A DNA stretch of 22,536 bases from a virus. Where the stretch lies: UHGV virus genome UHGV-0277527. One strand, given 5' to 3'. The notes below the pieces were generated by a model. It did not search any database, was not told the DNA's origin, and saw only the letters and a program-made list of their open reading frames with translations. A program made the translations under genes and the position numbers. This document shows, piece by piece, positions 1,321 through 21,418 of this stretch (position 1 is its first letter; each line of letters begins with the position of its first letter).

Positions 1321-1388
1321 TGTCTGTCATTTAATTTGCTCCAGATACAAGGAATCGCCGCAGCATGGCTACGGTGAATTTTGGGCAT

Positions 1389-1411
1389 AAAAAAACCCAG
1401 CCGAAGCTGGG
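1389..1411 (-). terminator. Rho-independent terminator downstream of ant (hairpin CCCAGC-TTCG-GCTGGG followed by a T-run on the minus strand); may act weakly in the plus direction for the HNH gene
   Basis: Plus strand reads aaaaaaa-cccagc-cgaa-gctggg; on the minus strand this is a GC stem with a TTCG loop followed by 7 T. It lies about 20 nt past the ant stop. Confidence 0.6.
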
Positions 1412-1430
1412 TCGTTGCGTTGGTTATCTG

Positions 1431-2333
1431 TCAGTAATTATGTACTGAAGGAGGTAATTCTTTATTCTTAAGTCTCATCCATGCGGAAAGATTCGTTGGT
1501 CCGTCTGGCTCATTGATATCAACATCTCGTGTGTGATTAATTAAAACGTCTCTCGCTATATCGATAATACGGGAGAACTCATAACCGCAGTCATGACATC
1601 TGCCGGAATAGTTCGATTGAATTTGTTTTAATGCCGGATACAGTTCGCGGAATAATGCCTGTGAACGGTTGGCATAATCCCATAACCATACAAGGCTGTT
1701 TGCTTCTTTTGCAGAAAGCTCGTTGGTTTTCTTCTCTTGTTTGCCAATGAACTCACCTTCAAGCACTACCCTGTGGATGTACTCTACGGCTTGCGGTATC
1801 TGAGATGCATCAAGCTCTTCAATACTTTCCACATTGAAACGCTGATGAATCATTGCATAAGCTTCTGGGTACATTAGATGCTTTTTGCTGACCAGCATAT
1901 TTACAGCATCACGAAGCGGAGTCCTGTCATCAACAGATGTTTTCTTACGTGCATTTTCTGCCTTTCCCTTTGTCCAGTAGTCATGCAGCACAGTAAAGCA
2001 TTCTTCCTGGTACTGAATCAGTTTATCGCGGATGTCAGCACGAACTTTCTCAGGGTTGATGCTGAACAGCCACCCATTTAACTTCTTCAAAGGAAGGCAG
2101 AGTAACTTACGAAGCTTCCCATCAGCGGCAACCATGTTCATATGAACACAGTTGAATTTGCTAATCTGCTTCATGAGTTTTGTTTGCTGCGTTGACCAGC
2201 TCATTCCAAGGTTTTCAACGATTGGCTTCATCGCAACATATGCAACTCCGGCAGCCATGGCGGTGATAATTTGCTGACCGTTGAATGGTACGTAAGAGGT
2301 GTTCACTGCTTCTAAAATTGCTATACTATTCAT
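1431..2333 (-). CDS. ant: Antirepressor Ant (P22 immI)
   Basis: Track ORF 1431-2399; the start is placed at the internal ATG at 2333-2331 ([21 protein letters not shown]...), giving 300 aa as in P22 Ant, with GGAGA 7 nt upstream. Near-identical to P22 Ant as I recall it. Confidence 0.9.
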
Positions 2334-15688: not shown

Positions 15689-17188
15689 TTAAGTTCTCCG
15701 TGCGATGGGCCTGATTGGGGCTGGTATCTTTTTCTCTTTTGGTTTTTTGATGTCGCGCATCATTTTGGCGAAGCGTCGCATCATGTATGCATAGCGAACG
15801 GCTGATAGCACGTCGTCGTTAAGCTTGACGATCTTCCCGTTTTCATCACGGTGATAGAGGCGGAACTCTTCAAAAAATGGCTCACAGGTGTTGAATACTT
15901 TGAAGCGACCATCGAGCATCATGTCGCGCAATTCAGTGATGCCAGGCTCAACAGCATTACCGCCATCAGGCCATGTCGCATGCTCCTGCAACATCATAAA
16001 ACCAGCGTCCGCGTACTGCCCTTTAAGCTGCTCACCGCCGCCCTTCTCGTGCTGGTTTCCGTCATGAGGCCATGCGGTTGGCACTTTATGCGCCCATGAT
16101 TTAACAGCTCCCCACGCCTGAACGGCTGTTTTTTCTTTCGCCTTCCACACGCGTGAAACGTAGATTGTGTCTGCGTCCTTATCCCACCAAAGCTGAACCT
16201 GCGCCTGTGGGTGATCCCATCCAAAATCCATCCCGCCAATTACGTAGAAGTGATCAGGACACTCGAACGGCTGACACTTAATCGTCTCTTCCGGTATCTG
16301 GAAGATTCGACCGCTACCCATCGTAGGAATACCGCGAGCACGCGCCTCTCTCTCATGCTCAGGATAAGATGCGATGATTTGCTCTTTCTGTTCTTCTGTG
16401 TAGTGCTCAGCGTCGTAGATGGTCATGTTGACCACTTTCTGCGACTTGCTTGGATTCTTCAGGAATTTGGTAACAACGTCAGACATCCCCATCAGCGGGG
16501 TAAACGTCAGAATTGAGAATTGCCCGTATTTGTTGGTACGGGTAAGACCTTCGCCATAAATGCTGTATGGTGGCTCTTCGTCAAACCACACGCCGTGGAT
16601 TGTGTCACCCTGCCAGCGAGCACGGCCTTGCGAGTATGGTTTGAAGTAGCAGATTGAAATGCCATCTTCAACGCCATCAGCCGTGTGATGCTTAACCAGA
16701 AGGTGATCAACAAGGTTCGGAAAGAAAGGAGACTTCTTCCAGCTAATGATGTCTTCTTTCGGTATGGAACCGTAGCCAGGCTCATCATTCTCTTCGATAC
16801 GACCGCACAGGATGCGTTGAGTCGTTTTGGTTACAGTCTCGTTTGTCTCGCCGCCAATCCAGAAGACAACAGGCTCATAGAAACGCTTACCTTTCCACTC
16901 ACCGCCATATTTACCATCAACAGGATAGCCTTTTGTGCCCGGATAACGCCCGGTAAGGTGAAACGCGACTTCAGCAGCACCAGTAAATGACTTACCAAGC
17001 TGGTTACCAGCCATAAAACATCGCTCTGGATAGTCATGTCCGGCGTCGATGAACTCACGCTGTTTGCTGTATGGCGTAAATTCATATAGCAGGTGTGTGT
17101 TACGGTAGTTCTCTTCTTCTTCGAGTAGCTCGAGCAATTCGATTTGCTCTTCGTCGCTCAAGTTATCAAGAATCGCGTCCAGTTCCAC
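15689..17188 (-). CDS. 2: Terminase large subunit gp2
   Basis: 499-aa ORF with a Walker A-like motif ([11 protein letters not shown]); same size as P22 gp2; overlaps the terminase small subunit gene by about 23 nt. Confidence 0.9.
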
Positions 17189-17654
17189 GGTTGAATAGCT
17201 CCTTGATACGAGAGCGCCGCTTATCGCGATCTCCCTTATCAGGTGTCACGTCTTCAACTTGCGACTGCTCTTTGAGGCCCAAATCACGGGCGATGATGTT
17301 AGCGTTGAGAAGGTCAGCGGCTGCGCCAGAGAATTTCTGGTCGTAGATGACCTGTTCTGCTCGCGTAACGACTTCAGATAAATCTTCTCGCAGGCGATAT
17401 GTGCGCCATGTTTCAAGCGTCACATCAATGAACAGAGTGAGGCCGGTAATGGTCATCGCTCGCATCTTGGCGATAGGCTCTTGTATCACTTCACCCTGAT
17501 ACGAGAACGCCTTCATCTCCCATAGCGGGTTAGCTTCCACCCACTCGAAGTATTCACAACAAGCAGCCCACAGCGCCTCAGGCGATTCGAATTTAGGATT
17601 TCGCCCATGACTACTGCGGGCCTCCCAAAATCGGTTGCCCTTTGGTGCTGCCAT
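17166..17654 (-). CDS. 3: Terminase small subunit gp3
   Basis: Track ORF 17166-17660 ([52 protein letters not shown]...); matches P22 gp3, which I recall as starting MAAPKGN. Start is either 17654 or 17660. Confidence 0.9.
17360..17387 (-). other. pac-like packaging initiation site inside gene 3
   Basis: The minus strand reads GAAGATTTATCTGAAGTCGTTACGCGAG (encoding ...[10 protein letters not shown]...). The P22 pac site lies at this position in gene 3 with a very similar sequence as I recall it. Confidence 0.55.
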
Positions 17655-17858
17655 ATTCATCTCACTTAGTTGTTATTTCAGGCTGAGGACTCTTTCGCGC
17701 CTTCAATCAGTGACTGCTTCAGCAATTCGAGTGTGCCAATCGCCTCGCATAAACTGATTTCACCATCGTAATCATGAATGACGCTTTCCAGCCGCTCGTA
17801 TAGCTCTTGAGTAATTGGGAATTTCTTCTCCTTACCCAAATTGATTACGCGGCTCACA

Positions 17859-18101
17859 TCATGCTCCGGTAGTGAACAGGTCTAACGCTTCCTTCGATTT
17901 ACGCACCGCTTCAAATGTGCGGATCGTGATATCCGAATTAGCGCCGCCTGACTGGAAGTGAATTTTGAATAGCTCAAGCTTCAGCTCGTCAGTGCCAATG
18001 AACTGAAATGCTTCCTCTGCAGCTGCGTTCTGGTTCATTACCAGCTTGTAAATCTCTAACTGGAATTTCTGTTCTTCAGTCATGGGAATAATCTCTGCCA
18101 T
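17859..18101 (-). CDS. Hypothetical protein (80 aa), conserved-position small ORF upstream of the terminase genes
   Basis: 80-aa ORF MAEIIPMTEEQKFQLEIYKLVMNQNAAAEEAF..., with an SD-like sequence upstream. Function unknown. Confidence 0.55.
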   Translation of the reverse strand: MAEIIPMTEEQKFQLEIYKLVMNQNAAAEEAFQFIGTDELKLELFKIHFQSGGANSDITIRTFEAVRKSKEALDLFTTGA

Positions 18102-18328
18102 TGTTGGCTCCGTTTATCCGTTAAAAGGGATATCAGTTAAGTTATCCCGTGCAGGGTATAAGCCATTGTCGAGACCACTCATTGAATGGCCTCTGCAATA
18201 ACCGATGTCTTTCCATCAGTCCGCCACCACAAAGAATCTTTTTTGCCATAAGGCTGGAGGTTCATCTTTCAGTGGCTGCCAGTGTTATTTCCCCACTTAC
18301 TGGCTTGGGTTGTTTCGCGGTGCTGCCG

Positions 18329-18871
18329 TTAATTGATGAGCCCGGGGATTACGGTTTGCCCGTGCTGTTCAAGGCGTTCAATTCTAGCCATCAGCTGTGG
18401 CTTCTTAATTTTGCCCCAGCGATTTAGCAGGCGACCTGACATGCTGGCAACATCCTTCTCTTTCATGTACTCCAGCATTACGGCATTTCTCTCTTCTTCA
18501 AATTGACGATGACCAACCTGAAGCATGGCGTACATCCAGTTGAATGCGTTGATGTAAGCAATTTTGATACGCATTGCTTCTTTTTTGGTGTAGGACATAA
18601 CCAAAAGCATCAACCCATCCTTGCGGAGACGGTAGAATTTTTGCGGCTTACCATTCTGTAACTCATTGTTTTTATAGCAAAGCTCAAAGTTGAGCTTTGT
18701 ATCAAACTCAGGAGGGCAAGCTTCTATGGTTCGTTCAATGTCACGAACTACGTTCTTCGGCAGCTTTCCAAATGCTTTTGCCACCATAAAAGAATCTGTA
18801 ACCGGATCGTTGTTTGCTACAAAAATTAGGTCTCTGAAATCTATATCGTTAACAACGGTTGGGTAGTTCAT
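18329..18871 (-). CDS. rha: Rha-family phage regulatory protein (antirepressor-like)
   Basis: Track ORF 18329-18940. N-terminal region MNYPTVVNDIDFRDLIFVANNDPVTDSFMVAKAFGKLPKNVVRDIERT resembles the Phage_pRha domain. Start is either 18871 (preferred) or 18940. Confidence 0.65.
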   Translation of the reverse strand: MNYPTVVNDIDFRDLIFVANNDPVTDSFMVAKAFGKLPKNVVRDIERTIEACPPEFDTKLNFELCYKNNELQNGKPQKFYRLRKDGLMLLVMSYTKKEAMRIKIAYINAFNWMYAMLQVGHRQFEEERNAVMLEYMKEKDVASMSGRLLNRWGKIKKPQLMARIERLEQHGQTVIPGLIN

Positions 18872-19216: not shown

Positions 19217-19684
19217 TCATCGAAGGCATTGCGTCCTGATGTATTCCTGAAGCGTTCTCAGTGCTGTTTGGTCGCGGATAATTCCGTCCCGGACACCGAG
19301 AACGTTTCGTCCAGCAACTGGAGAGAGTTCGACGGTGGCATCATTGCCCATGCCGGAGGCGCCGGAGGTTTCGGCTGAGGATGGCACAGGGCATTTTCCT
19401 TTGACGAGCACCCTGCCACCATTATCAAGCTTGCGCCGAAGAGCATCATTTTCAGCTTTCGCATCAGCTAACTCCTTCGTGTATTTAGCATCGAGTGCAT
19501 CAGCAGCACGCTGGCGTTGCTGCATGTCAGTAATGGTAGCGGTCGCCTGCTTCAGCTCACTGACTTTTTTATCTCGCTGTTCTTTGTAGGCGATGGCGTT
19601 ATCACGGTAGTGATTAACAGCCCATGACAGGCAAACGATGATGCAGATAACCAGAGCGGAGATAATCGCGGTTACTCTGCTCAT
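19217..19684 (-). CDS. Rz: Inner-membrane spanin Rz (i-spanin)
   Basis: Track ORF 19217-19696; the start is placed at the ATG at 19684, which overlaps the endolysin stop (ATGA). The N-terminal two-thirds ([31 protein letters not shown]...[16 protein letters not shown]) matches lambda Rz as I recall it; the C-terminal third diverges. Confidence 0.85.
19258..19464 (-). CDS. Rz1: Outer-membrane lipoprotein spanin Rz1 (o-spanin), embedded out of frame inside Rz
   Basis: [21 protein letters not shown]... has a lipobox (MVAG|C) and a proline-rich region ([11 protein letters not shown]), as in lambda Rz1. Lies entirely within Rz in a different frame. Confidence 0.75.
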
Positions 19685-20184
19685 TGTTGCCCCCACAAAC
19701 AGACTTCACGCTCAATCTCACGGCGAGTCATCAGCCCTTTCCATTGCTTACCGCCAGCGTATGTCCAGCGACGTAGCTGGTCACATGCGCCATTGATATC
19801 GCCCTGGTTGATTTTGCGAAGAAGCGTCGATGTTCTGAAATTGCCTGCGCCCACGTTATAGACGAACGAATAAAGAGCGCCGCGCGTTGTTTCCGGTATA
19901 TCGACTTTGATGTACGGGTTAATTTGTCTGGCGACAGTGGCAAGGTCTTTATTCAAGAGTGCTTTGCATTCTGCTTCGGTATACGTTTTACCGAGCATGA
20001 TGTCTTTTCCGGTGTGTCCGTGACATACAGTCCATACACCAACAATATCTTTGTATGGTATGTAGCTAACACCTTCCAGACCATCGTTACCACTTGGTCC
20101 AGTGATTAACACAGATGCTATAGCAATAGCCCCGCCACTTATCGCCGCTATTACGCTATTTCGTAGTGCCGGTGACATTGCCAT
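19681..20184 (-). CDS. R: SAR endolysin (T4-lysozyme-like family, phage 21 R / DLP12 RrrD type)
   Basis: 167-aa ORF. N-terminal signal-anchor-release-type segment ([17 protein letters not shown]) followed by ...[31 protein letters not shown]...; near-identical to the phage 21 endolysin as I recall it. Confidence 0.85.
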
Positions 20185-20359
20185 TCAATCTGTCCTCGCG
20201 CTCTTTGCGCTTGTAGTACCAGTTGATGCCAAATGTGCCGACAGTACAAAGAATACCAATGATGACAGCCCAGTCATTCAGGGAGAGAATGCCACCCATC
20301 GCAGTCAGTCCTCCGAAGCTGTAACTGAACCATTCTCTGATTTTGTCCATACGGTACAT
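20156..20359 (-). CDS. Class II holin / probable pinholin with a dual-start motif
   Basis: 67 aa with two predicted transmembrane segments (Gly/Ala/Ser-rich [17 protein letters not shown], then [20 protein letters not shown]) and a charged C-terminal tail. N-terminus is Met1-Tyr-Arg-Met4. Overlaps the endolysin start by 29 nt. Confidence 0.65.
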
Positions 20360-20652
20360 GCTCTACCCCTTCATTGAGGGGATTTGCTCTATTTAATTAG
20401 GAATAAGGTCGATTACTGATAGAACAAATCCAGGCTACTGTGTTTAGTAATCAGATTTGTTCGTGACCGATATGCACGGGCAAAACGGCAGGAGGTTGTT
20501 AGCGCAGCCTCTTGCCACCCGCTTTCACGAAGCCAGCCATTGCGCTGGTTTTCTTTTATGCAAAGCACACCGCACCGTAGCCACAGCGGATAAGGTGATT
20601 ATTTTGGTCTGTCTGGTATTTGGTTTGATGTGCTTTCAGAAAGTCCGTGCTT

Positions 20653-20689
20653 AAAACGCAAAAAGCCCCGAGCTATTAACTCAGGGCTT
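20653..20689 (-). terminator. Rho-independent terminator about 20-55 nt downstream of the pR' start (likely Q antitermination target, tR'-like)
   Basis: Minus strand reads GCCCTGAG-(7-nt loop)-CTCGGGGC, an 8-bp stem with one G-U pair, followed by TTTTTGCGTTTT. Confidence 0.55.
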
Positions 20690-20713
20690 TATTTAACGAG
20701 TGCATTTATCCAT

Positions 20714-20742
20714 CGTTGAGTCAAATTTACCCAATTTTATTC
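20714..20742 (-). promoter_or_regulatory. Late promoter pR' with overlapping qut site (lambda type)
   Basis: Minus strand reads TTGACT-17 bp-TAAATT-TGACTC-AACGATGG, which matches the lambda pR' -35, -10 and initial transcribed sequence as I recall them. Predicted +1 is about 20707. Confidence 0.75.
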
Positions 20743-20794
20743 AATAAGTCAATATCATGCCGTTAATATGTTGCCATCCGTGGCAATCATGCTG

Positions 20795-21418
20795 CTAACG
20801 TGTGACCGCATTCAAAATGTTGTCTGCGATTGACTCTTCCTTGTGGCATTGCACCACCAGAGCGTCATACAGCGGCTTAACAGTGCGTGACCAGGTGGGT
20901 TGAGTAAGGTTTGGGATTAGCATCGTTACAGCGCGATATGCGGCGCTTGCTGGCATTCTTGAATAGCCGACACCTTTGCATCTTCCGCATTCTTTCTCAA
21001 CAACTCTCCCCCACAGCTCTGTTTTTGATATATCAACCGCACGGCCTGTACCGTGGCAATCTCTGCATCTTGCGCCAGGCGTCGCGGCACTACGGCAATA
21101 ATCCGCATAAGCGAATGTTGCGAGCACTTGCAGTACCTTTGCCTTAGTATTTCCTTCAAGCTTTGCCACACCACGGTATTTCCCCGATACCTTGTGTGCA
21201 AATTGCATCAGATAGTTGATAGCCTTTTGTTTGTCGTTCTGGCTGAGTTCGTGCTTACCGCAGAATGCAGCCATACCGAATCCGGCTTGTGATTGCGCCA
21301 TCCCCATAGCAGCCATCACATCAGTACCGGAAAGAGAGTCAGAAGCTGTAGCCCGTGGTGAGTCGCTCATCATCGGGCTTTTTGGCGAATGAAATTTAGC
21401 TACGCTTTCGAGTCTCAT
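20795..21418 (-). CDS. Q: Late gene antiterminator Q (lambda type)
   Basis: 207-aa ORF MRLESVAKFHSPKSPMMSDSPRATASDS...CRDCHGTGRAVDI...ECGRCKGVGY...; essentially identical to lambda Q as I recall it (zinc-binding Cys cluster present). Confidence 0.95.
   Translation of the reverse strand: MRLESVAKFHSPKSPMMSDSPRATASDSLSGTDVMAAMGMAQSQAGFGMAAFCGKHELSQNDKQKAINYLMQFAHKVSGKYRGVAKLEGNTKAKVLQVLATFAYADYCRSAATPGARCRDCHGTGRAVDISKTELWGRVVEKECGRCKGVGYSRMPASAAYRAVTMLIPNLTQPTWSRTVKPLYDALVVQCHKEESIADNILNAVTR

Follow-up and report, generated by a model that had tools for sequence, protein, structure and literature searches.

The locus examined here raises the question of whether one short holin gene, whose product opens with MYRMDK, yields two proteins with opposing roles in lysis. 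It lies in a stretch of 22,536 nt (virus genome UHGV-0277527), referred to below as the window. A first-pass annotation, made from the sequence alone, had proposed that a pinholin and its antiholin are translated from Met4 and Met1, respectively, as in the phage 21 holin S21, beside an endolysin with an N-terminal SAR domain. The gene, part of a lambdoid, P22-like cassette, encodes a class II holin that belongs to the HP1 family and has two transmembrane domains (TMDs). We consider it fairly probable that it is a dual-start holin/antiholin gene, most likely for a pinholin. The earlier reading was borne out wherever sequence can test it, and the pinholin/antiholin behaviour that we infer is supported by the comparisons described below.

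Holin gene and lysis cassette

The ORF listing and its translation placed the 67-codon ORF with the MYRMDK N-terminus at 20156..20359, where it had been reported, and on the minus strand, which had been left unstated. Two products can be read from it:

20156..20359, minus strand: long product of the holin gene, 67 aa, start at Met1 (ORF; PF16080; PHROG 20; identity to gp13)
20156..20350, minus strand: short product of the holin gene, 64 aa, start at Met4 (MDKIRE...; in-frame ATG)

On the minus strand, ATG1 occupies 20359..20357, the Arg3 codon (CGT) 20353..20351, and ATG4 20350..20348. We call a gene dual-start when it has two in-frame starts 1–3 codons apart and a basic residue in the longer product alone, and this gene has both. 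The 64-aa product is predicted to be the active holin, and the 67-aa product, which carries Arg3, is predicted to be an antiholin-like form. Some gene callers place the start of relatives at the internal Met (P0013, P0017, P0023, P0025, and P0039), and users of such predictions should expect the annotated start to be either Met. A 91-aa ORF on the plus strand (20102..20377) was rejected as a real gene: it runs antisense to the conserved holin and is without support.

The late region lies entirely on the minus strand, in the order Q, pR'-like promoter, terminator, leader, holin, endolysin, and Rz/Rz1, with a leader of ~300 nt ahead of the holin. Apart from the holin and the leader, its features are as follows:

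20795..21418, minus strand: Q-type late antiterminator (PF03589, E 1.2e-57)
20752..20724, minus strand: pR'-like promoter, TTGACT-17-TAAATT, between Q and the holin
20690..20662, minus strand: intrinsic terminator, between Q and the holin
19681..20184, minus strand: R21/RrrD-type SAR endolysin, 167 aa (PF00959, E 1e-45; PDB 3HDE, 4ZPU)
19217..19684, minus strand: Rz-type i-spanin (PF03245, E 5e-29; PHROG 13)
19258..19464, minus strand: Rz1-type o-spanin lipoprotein, embedded in Rz (PF06085, E 3.8e-21; PHROG 3198)

The holin and endolysin genes overlap by 29 nt (20156..20184), holin stop codon included, and this overlap is conserved across loci. Translation of Rz likely begins with the ATG at 19684; a GTG at 19696 opens the ORF as listed. 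The structural module of a P22-like podovirus makes up the remainder of the window, and the window is ~95% identical to the E. coli phages HZ41, APC_JM3.2, and IME10 over 52–58% of its length.

Family assignment and membrane topology

The holin matched the Pfam family PF16080 (Phage_holin_2_3, "holin family HP1") with 75.1 bits (E 4.4e-21, profile positions 1–49 of 56) against a gathering threshold of 28.8 bits, and the same family was found in all 45 of its 45 close homologues. PHROG 20, "holin", was matched with an E-value of 3.5e-25. The layout of the HP1 holin family, namely two TMDs, a charged C-terminal tail, and a gene adjoining that of the endolysin, is present in the window holin. The score for PF04971 (Phage_holin_2_1, P21 holin S) was 19.5 bits, below the threshold of 26 bits, with residues 25–54 matched alone, and a search of the NCBIfam profiles returned no model that matches the window holin.

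Using hhalign, we compared EssD, the S21-type holin from prophage DLP12, with a profile built from 40 members of the family. The two aligned over nearly their full length (probability 96.4%, E 1.1e-9), with Met4-Asp-Lys of the window holin falling on Met4-Asp-Lys of EssD and the TMD2 stripe G35/T39/T42/N46 falling on S44/G48/T51/N55. Because this alignment goes together with a sub-threshold PF04971 score, the homology to S21 is best described as remote and the families as different: these profile comparisons place the window holin in the HP1 family, with the S21-type holins as remote homologues at the superfamily level, in a separate family. The S21-like architecture claimed earlier thus stands as regards remote homology and the aligned M4-D-K, but not as regards family, which is PF16080. 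The S21 start given in the first-pass annotation, M-K-S-M-D-K, matches that of EssD (MKSMDKL).

The topology check that the first-pass annotation had called for was made by hydropathy and gave a two-helix layout with a weak TMD1 and a strong TMD2:

20279..20332, minus strand: TMD1 (W10–L27), weakly hydrophobic, SAR-like candidate (hydropathy, composition, family alignment)
20216..20272, minus strand: TMD2 (W30–Y48), strongly hydrophobic, with the stripe G35/T39/T42/N46 (hydropathy, family alignment)
20159..20215, minus strand: C-terminal tail, charged, 19 residues, cytoplasmic (hydropathy/charge)

The first TMD had been described as rich in Gly, Ala, and Ser, and nine of its 18 residues are indeed Gly, Ser, Thr, or Ala (four Gly, three Ser, one Thr, one Ala); in the family alignment, small residues run along the whole of TMD1. 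Its best 17-residue Kyte–Doolittle mean was 1.13, which lies between that of EssD TMD1 (0.56) and that of its own TMD2 (up to 1.9). The two segments are joined by a two-residue turn, N28-D29. Within TMD2, G35 is invariant in the family alignment and T42 and N46 are conserved at 90% or above. The C-terminal tail carries five basic residues in eight positions (K50, R51, K52, R54, R57). AlphaFold2, run on the family alignment, gave helices at residues 3–22 and 28–62 with a moderate pLDDT of 67.5, rising to ~83–84 over TMD2.

The N-terminal tail of the short product is net-neutral (D5, K6, R8, E9). The long product gains one positive charge, Arg3, the counterpart of which in S21 71 is Lys2. Four charges in the N-terminal tail (two in S21 68), combined with a more hydrophobic TMD1, could hinder the exit of TMD1.

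Endolysin partners and hole size

R21 is the paradigm of SAR endolysins. The endolysin in the window, a GH24 lysozyme, proved near-identical to the lysozyme R21 of phage 21 (PDB 3HDE) and to RrrD of E. coli (4ZPU) at full length (E ~1e-106), N-terminal hydrophobic segment included, which agrees with the SAR domain assigned to it earlier; its residues 3–167 align with chain residues 1–165 of both structures. A second ATG is present at 20178, and the SAR-like segment spans roughly residues 10–29. The catalytic Glu/Asp/Thr of R21 (E35, D44, T50) sit in identical sequence.

We examined the partners of related holins in the same manner. Thirty-seven loci gave a candidate downstream ORF, one of which (L014) was listed as an out-of-frame read-through whose inner Met opens a similar segment. 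A hydrophobic, Gly/Ala-rich N-terminal segment was found in the partner endolysins of 36 of the 36 readable genomic loci, where at least three N-terminal sequence types occur: one R21-like, one that we read as P1-Lyz-like, and a third. A SAR-like N-terminus was also found in 72 of 72 readable viral contigs carrying the same holin allele, which are near-identical copies alone and add no diversity, and in four of four distant phages (APSE-2, a Providencia phage, a Pseudoalteromonas phage, and, via an out-of-frame ORF, phiE125). gp25 of phiE125 was considered as a SAR-less exception and rejected, as the interval between gp24 and gp25 holds a SAR-like ORF (MAEKKTLIGVVGAATAALLLSIIAALK) in a different frame, indicative of a frameshift or of a problem in the annotation. 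Since the readable partner endolysins all have a SAR-like or signal-anchor-like N-terminus, the pinholin/antiholin reading is well supported by comparison, and the window holin is likely to be a pinholin.

A SAR endolysin partner is nonetheless insufficient proof of small holes, because a large-hole holin can serve a SAR endolysin. SAR endolysins require depolarisation only, so any holin type would suit them, and phage P1 pairs its SAR endolysin with a large-hole holin. The window gene may accordingly be read as a canonical large-hole class II holin beside a SAR endolysin, its dual-start pair producing a micron-scale lesion that would release a soluble endolysin. Such a holin would fit the finding that a SAR endolysin functions with either holin type (N4 preprint), as well as a TMD1 more hydrophobic than that of the S21-type protein. 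We consider this unlikely, though by no means far-fetched, because none of the 36 genomic loci, 72 viral contigs, and four distant phages showed a soluble-endolysin partner despite the mosaic nature of the cassettes, and because HP1 Hol, the family prototype, acted without beta-galactosidase leakage (PMC7312051). The content of the same slot in APC_JM3.2, the closest whole-genome relative, also speaks against it: the slot holds a lambda-family holin and a 159-aa lysozyme of lambda R length, which suggests that holin and endolysin types are exchanged as matched pairs. The dual-start pinholin reading is further supported by DLP12, in which the R21-type endolysin seen here beside an HP1-family holin comes after a holin of the S21 type.

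Conservation of the dual start

By chance, only a few per cent of proteins would carry another Met three codons past the first, so a single sequence is weak proof of a dual start. We therefore turned to relatives found by scanning one genome per bacterial species, which gave 40 loci with 50–82% identity over the matched segment, and followed each reading frame upstream as far as the previous stop before scoring the motif. A start of the form M-x(0-2)-[R/K]-M was present in 39 of these 40 species-level loci, a frequency that by this count far exceeds chance. The spacing between the two Mets varies, at one or two residues, and both Mets are kept. Citrobacter and Raoultella have M[YQH]RMDK. Yersinia, Photorhabdus, Serratia, Pectobacterium, Erwinia, and Izhakiella have MRMDK, with MKMDK also occurring in Izhakiella and MIRMDK in Erwinia; a subfamily of longer proteins (89 aa) has M[TAK][RK]MS[TV].

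The inter-Met residue was always Arg or Lys, encoded by CGT, CGC, CGA, AGA, or AAA. Because Arg or Lys is kept via five different codons, selection acts at the protein level on a residue found in the long product alone, which in turn argues that Met1 is translated. The first-pass annotation had assigned the extra positive charge of the long form to Arg3, and the conservation of Arg/Lys across clades by way of synonymous codons agrees with this. From these comparisons, the two start codons are most likely both used for translation.

The motif has a limited range. When the family was clustered at 50% identity, seven of the 66 representatives showed, as annotated, a tight dual start with a basic residue, and six more had a longer basic extension before the conserved Met. 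As far as these representatives go, the dual start is a trait of the enterobacterial clade rather than of the HP1 family as a whole.

Leader hairpin

Two features precede the holin gene:

20372..20535, minus strand: leader of the late operon, identical at every base to the one ahead of S in phage lambda (alignment)
20366..20381, minus strand: sdi-like hairpin, CCCCU-CAAUGA-AGGGG (folding; inverted repeat)

The hairpin folds at -8.7 kcal/mol (z -1.9 against dinucleotide shuffles). Its 3' arm is a G-rich, Shine–Dalgarno (SD)-like run 6 nt upstream of AUG1, and a weaker GAG follows the hairpin 10 nt before ATG4. Over ~165 nt, the leader equals that of lambda through the 5' arm of the hairpin, and identity ends inside the loop; at the corresponding place lambda has CCCCU-UAUU-GGGGG-UAAGAC-AUG-AAG-AUG. 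The lambda hairpin upstream of S is the sdi element, which partitions initiation between S107 and S105. Because the leader is base-identical to that of lambda up to the loop, we regard the window hairpin, on alignment, as the positional counterpart of the lambda sdi hairpin.

The SD-like run was paired in the minimum-energy fold of 22 of 22 representative leaders, and likewise in those of EssD and lambda. The stems vary by clade (UCCGA/UCGGA, UCCGU/ACGGA, CCCC/GGGG, CCAUC/GAUGG, and CACCCGC/GCGAGGUG), and z-scores against dinucleotide shuffles were negative throughout (mean -1.67). Covariation was judged by per-sequence folds and shuffles, a weaker form of evidence for it, on leaders that are related and hence non-independent. 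RNAalifold, applied to a MAFFT alignment of the 22 leaders, yielded no consensus structure; loop lengths differ and the arms were misaligned. The overall folding stability of the 111 nt around the start was insignificant (z +0.30), the local hairpin alone being notable. An SD-sequestering hairpin thus has good comparative support, short of proof, and it probably governs how initiation is divided between the two starts.

The conservation data and the hairpin bear together on another possibility, that a single start, Met1 or Met4, is in use and that M-x-R-M has been inherited without a regulatory role. Gene callers do differ in the Met they choose, and HP1 Hol and most of the distant family members are without the motif as annotated. 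We nevertheless regard a single start as distinctly improbable. The two Mets and the basic residue are kept in nearly all of the species-level loci though spacing and codons change, a lambda-type SD-sequestering hairpin stands just upstream, and in lambda S and S21 a 5' end arranged in this way is a proven dual start (PMC9636201).

Proposed lysis mechanism

In the dual-start pinholin reading that we favour, initiation at Met4 would give the 64-aa lethal form. Initiation at Met1 would give the 67-aa form, in which Arg3 would add a positive charge to the cytoplasmic N-terminus; this charge would delay the switch to the active topology and so confer antiholin behaviour, as in S21 71 and lambda S107. 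By sequestering the upstream SD-like G run, the hairpin at the sdi position would probably determine the ratio in which the two starts are chosen. Accumulated holin would depolarise the inner membrane, most likely via small holes, upon which the membrane-tethered R21-type SAR endolysin would be released, refold, and degrade the murein. Once the murein is lost, Rz/Rz1 would disrupt the outer membrane.

A variant of this scheme, to which we assign a low probability, keeps the dual start and changes its mode of action. The extension may control triggering otherwise than by blocking TMD1 exit; the idea arises because the N-terminal tail has four charges and because C-terminus exposure has been reported for HP1 Hol. 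One possible form of such control is holin–holin pairing on the cytoplasmic face. If true, this would be a second kind of dual-start antiholin. Separately, the SD-sequestering hairpin may serve as a portable joint, by which holins of unrelated classes would be fitted to one lambda late leader.

Least credible, with a very small chance of being right, is HP1 Hol-like action, in which TMD2 and the C-terminus go periplasmic and the Arg3 extension acts unlike that of S21 71 or is idle: family membership, the four charges in the N-terminal tail, and the C-out/N-in topology reported for overexpressed HP1 Hol (PMC7312051) would fit it, but the C-terminal basic cluster (K50, R51, K52, R54, R57) strongly favours the cytoplasm, the conserved basic N-terminal extension is best explained if the N-terminus moves, and the S21-type homology runs full length.

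Occurrence and prior annotation

The gene is an ordinary, already catalogued phage lysis gene. The window holin is 100% identical to gp13 of the Salmonella phages PS119, ST104, SE1, and SPN9CC and 98.5% identical to PS34 gp13. It is annotated as "holin" in the PS119 record and as "class II holin" in many others, and PS119 gp13 is already named as a class II holin in the record of phiE125. In the record of phage 434, a protein identical to EssD carries the annotation "antiholin | holin class II". Of 5426 complete E. coli genomes, 82 matched the holin-gene query (321 nt) at a coverage of at least 80%; the top matches were 100% identical and annotated "phage holin family protein" beside "lysozyme RrrD". 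The allele was also present in 361 IMG/VR stretches. Six P22-like phages are reported to carry three non-homologous holin types and three lysin types (PMC2629481). A search of the available literature for experimental work on this holin allele (PS119/PS34, SPN9CC, ST104/ST64T) returned none, and the experimental support for pinholin behaviour comes only from the distant prototype HP1 Hol, itself without a dual start (PMC7312051).

To the existing record we add that an enterobacterial clade of the HP1 family has kept both the dual start and its basic residue, that an sdi-like hairpin accompanies the dual start and, in the window, marks the joint with a lambda-identical leader, and that these holins are paired with SAR-type endolysins in every readable case. 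The family prototype has neither the dual start with its basic residue nor the SD-sequestering hairpin. Through this clade, the S21 antiholin model could be examined in a second family of holins, divergent though homologous. Beyond correct annotation the importance is slight. We suggest the label [quoted passage not shown], with the neighbour labelled as a SAR endolysin.

Comparison with known systems

The closest known counterpart is gp13 of PS119, PS34, ST104, SE1, and SPN9CC (AJ011581, CAA09709.1), with which the window shares the gene order 13-19-15 and the upstream leader. Compared with PS119-type gp13 there is no difference at the protein level; the window backbone is that of an E. coli P22-like phage, whereas the hosts of gp13 are Salmonella phages.

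S21 (S21 68/S21 71) and EssD resemble the window holin in having two TMDs with a weak, Gly/Ser/Ala-rich TMD1, a dual start of the form M-x-x-M-D-K whose longer product gains a single basic residue, an SD covered by a hairpin, and essentially the same partner endolysin (R21/RrrD). They differ in Pfam family, with an aligned identity of ~25%, and in a periplasmic turn of about seven residues compared with two (N28-D29) in the window holin. The window holin has a more hydrophobic TMD1 and two extra charges in the N-terminal tail (R8, E9), and its basic residue is Arg at position 3 rather than Lys at position 2. The antiholin function of S21 71, like that of S107, comes from the extra N-terminal positive charge supplied by the dual start (PMC9636201).

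Hol of Haemophilus phage HP1, the PF16080 prototype, is likewise encoded directly upstream of a SAR endolysin gene and overlaps it. In contrast to the window clade, it has 78 aa, no dual start, and no known antiholin. HP1 Hol was lethal to E. coli with neither lysis nor beta-galactosidase leakage, and its authors concluded that HP1 uses a pinholin and a SAR endolysin; on overexpression, a C-out/N-in topology with an exposed C-terminus was reported (PMC7312051).

Lambda S (S105/S107) is, unlike the window holin, a three-TMD class I large-hole holin of unrelated sequence with a soluble endolysin partner. Besides the leader, what the two have in common is the arrangement at the start, a hairpin followed by a dual start with a basic residue, M-K-M in lambda and M-Y-R-M in the window.

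A mosaic joint and a possible recombination joint flanking the holin gene

The late leader of the window (20372..20535, minus strand, approximately 165 nt) was identical at every base to the phage lambda leader upstream of S, and behind it lies a class II holin unrelated to that of lambda. The identity with lambda stops within the loop of the hairpin (20366..20381, minus strand) just before the holin start codons, and the mosaic joint therefore lies inside the translational-control hairpin. At its other end, the holin gene overlaps the endolysin gene by 29 nt (20156..20184), the holin ending in ...NGNVTGTTK* and the endolysin opening with MAMSPALRN.... This overlap module, KEREDRLNG / MAMSxxxRN, recurred in the window and among the holin-encoding loci L002-L034, where it precedes endolysins differing in their N-terminal domain, either R21-like (GGGAIAIAS...) or of the type KLSAAVxGLILAGASAP..., which we take to be P1-Lyz-like. 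From the sequences compared, the module looks like a shared recombination joint. A 91-aa ORF on the plus strand (20102..20377), antisense to the holin gene and spanning it entirely, was without any support as a gene and is most likely an artefact of ORF listing.

Start codons of the endolysin and Rz genes

The endolysin ORF opens with M-A-M, with ATG codons at 20184 and 20178. A GAGGA motif (20197..20193) precedes the first of these by 8 nt, and alignment with R21 and RrrD begins at the second Met; the two-residue extension ahead of that Met adds no charge. The listed Rz ORF (19217..19696) begins at a GTG (MGATMSRV...). Four codons into it, an ATG at 19684 forms an ATGA overlap with the endolysin stop codon, and reading from this ATG gives MSRVTAII..., the N-terminus of lambda Rz. 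The ATG at 19684 is the more likely Rz start, rather than the GTG.

Divergent relatives

An 89-aa holin subfamily (L013, L015, L019-L034 and L039-L041; proteins P0042 and P0048) was found in Citrobacter, Kluyvera, Klebsiella, Phytobacter and others. It has TMD2 and the tail in common with the window holin, and the phage HK225 holin, placed with this subfamily, matched the window holin over residues 25-63. The N-terminal part is longer (MTRMSTIYSRLSYGTGTALTGCGVSAKAYA...WMLADK...), possibly adding an extra segment to the topology, and is still opened by a basic dual start. The sole related locus without the dual-start motif was L038 of Xenorhabdus szentirmaii (1360..1644), where no plausible Met was present in the reading frame upstream of TMD1 and a search for a downstream endolysin ORF found none; it may be a decayed prophage copy.

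In Burkholderia phage phiE125 (AF447491), the annotated lysozyme gp25 has no membrane segment at its start, and a SAR-like ORF (MAEKKTLIGVVGAATAALLLSIIAALK*; L125, 1388..1480) lies in a different frame between holin gp24 and gp25. This arrangement probably reflects a sequence frameshift or mis-annotation; a programmed frameshift is conceivable.

Exchange of the lysis cassette

The window and its closest whole-genome relatives, represented by Escherichia phage APC_JM3.2, have the Q gene and structural genes in common. At 17142..18389, APC_JM3.2 encodes a lambda-family class I holin and a 159-aa lysozyme, as long as lambda R, whereas the window carries a class II holin and a SAR endolysin in the corresponding place (19217..20359). 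The difference between the two lysis regions is a swap of the whole cassette.
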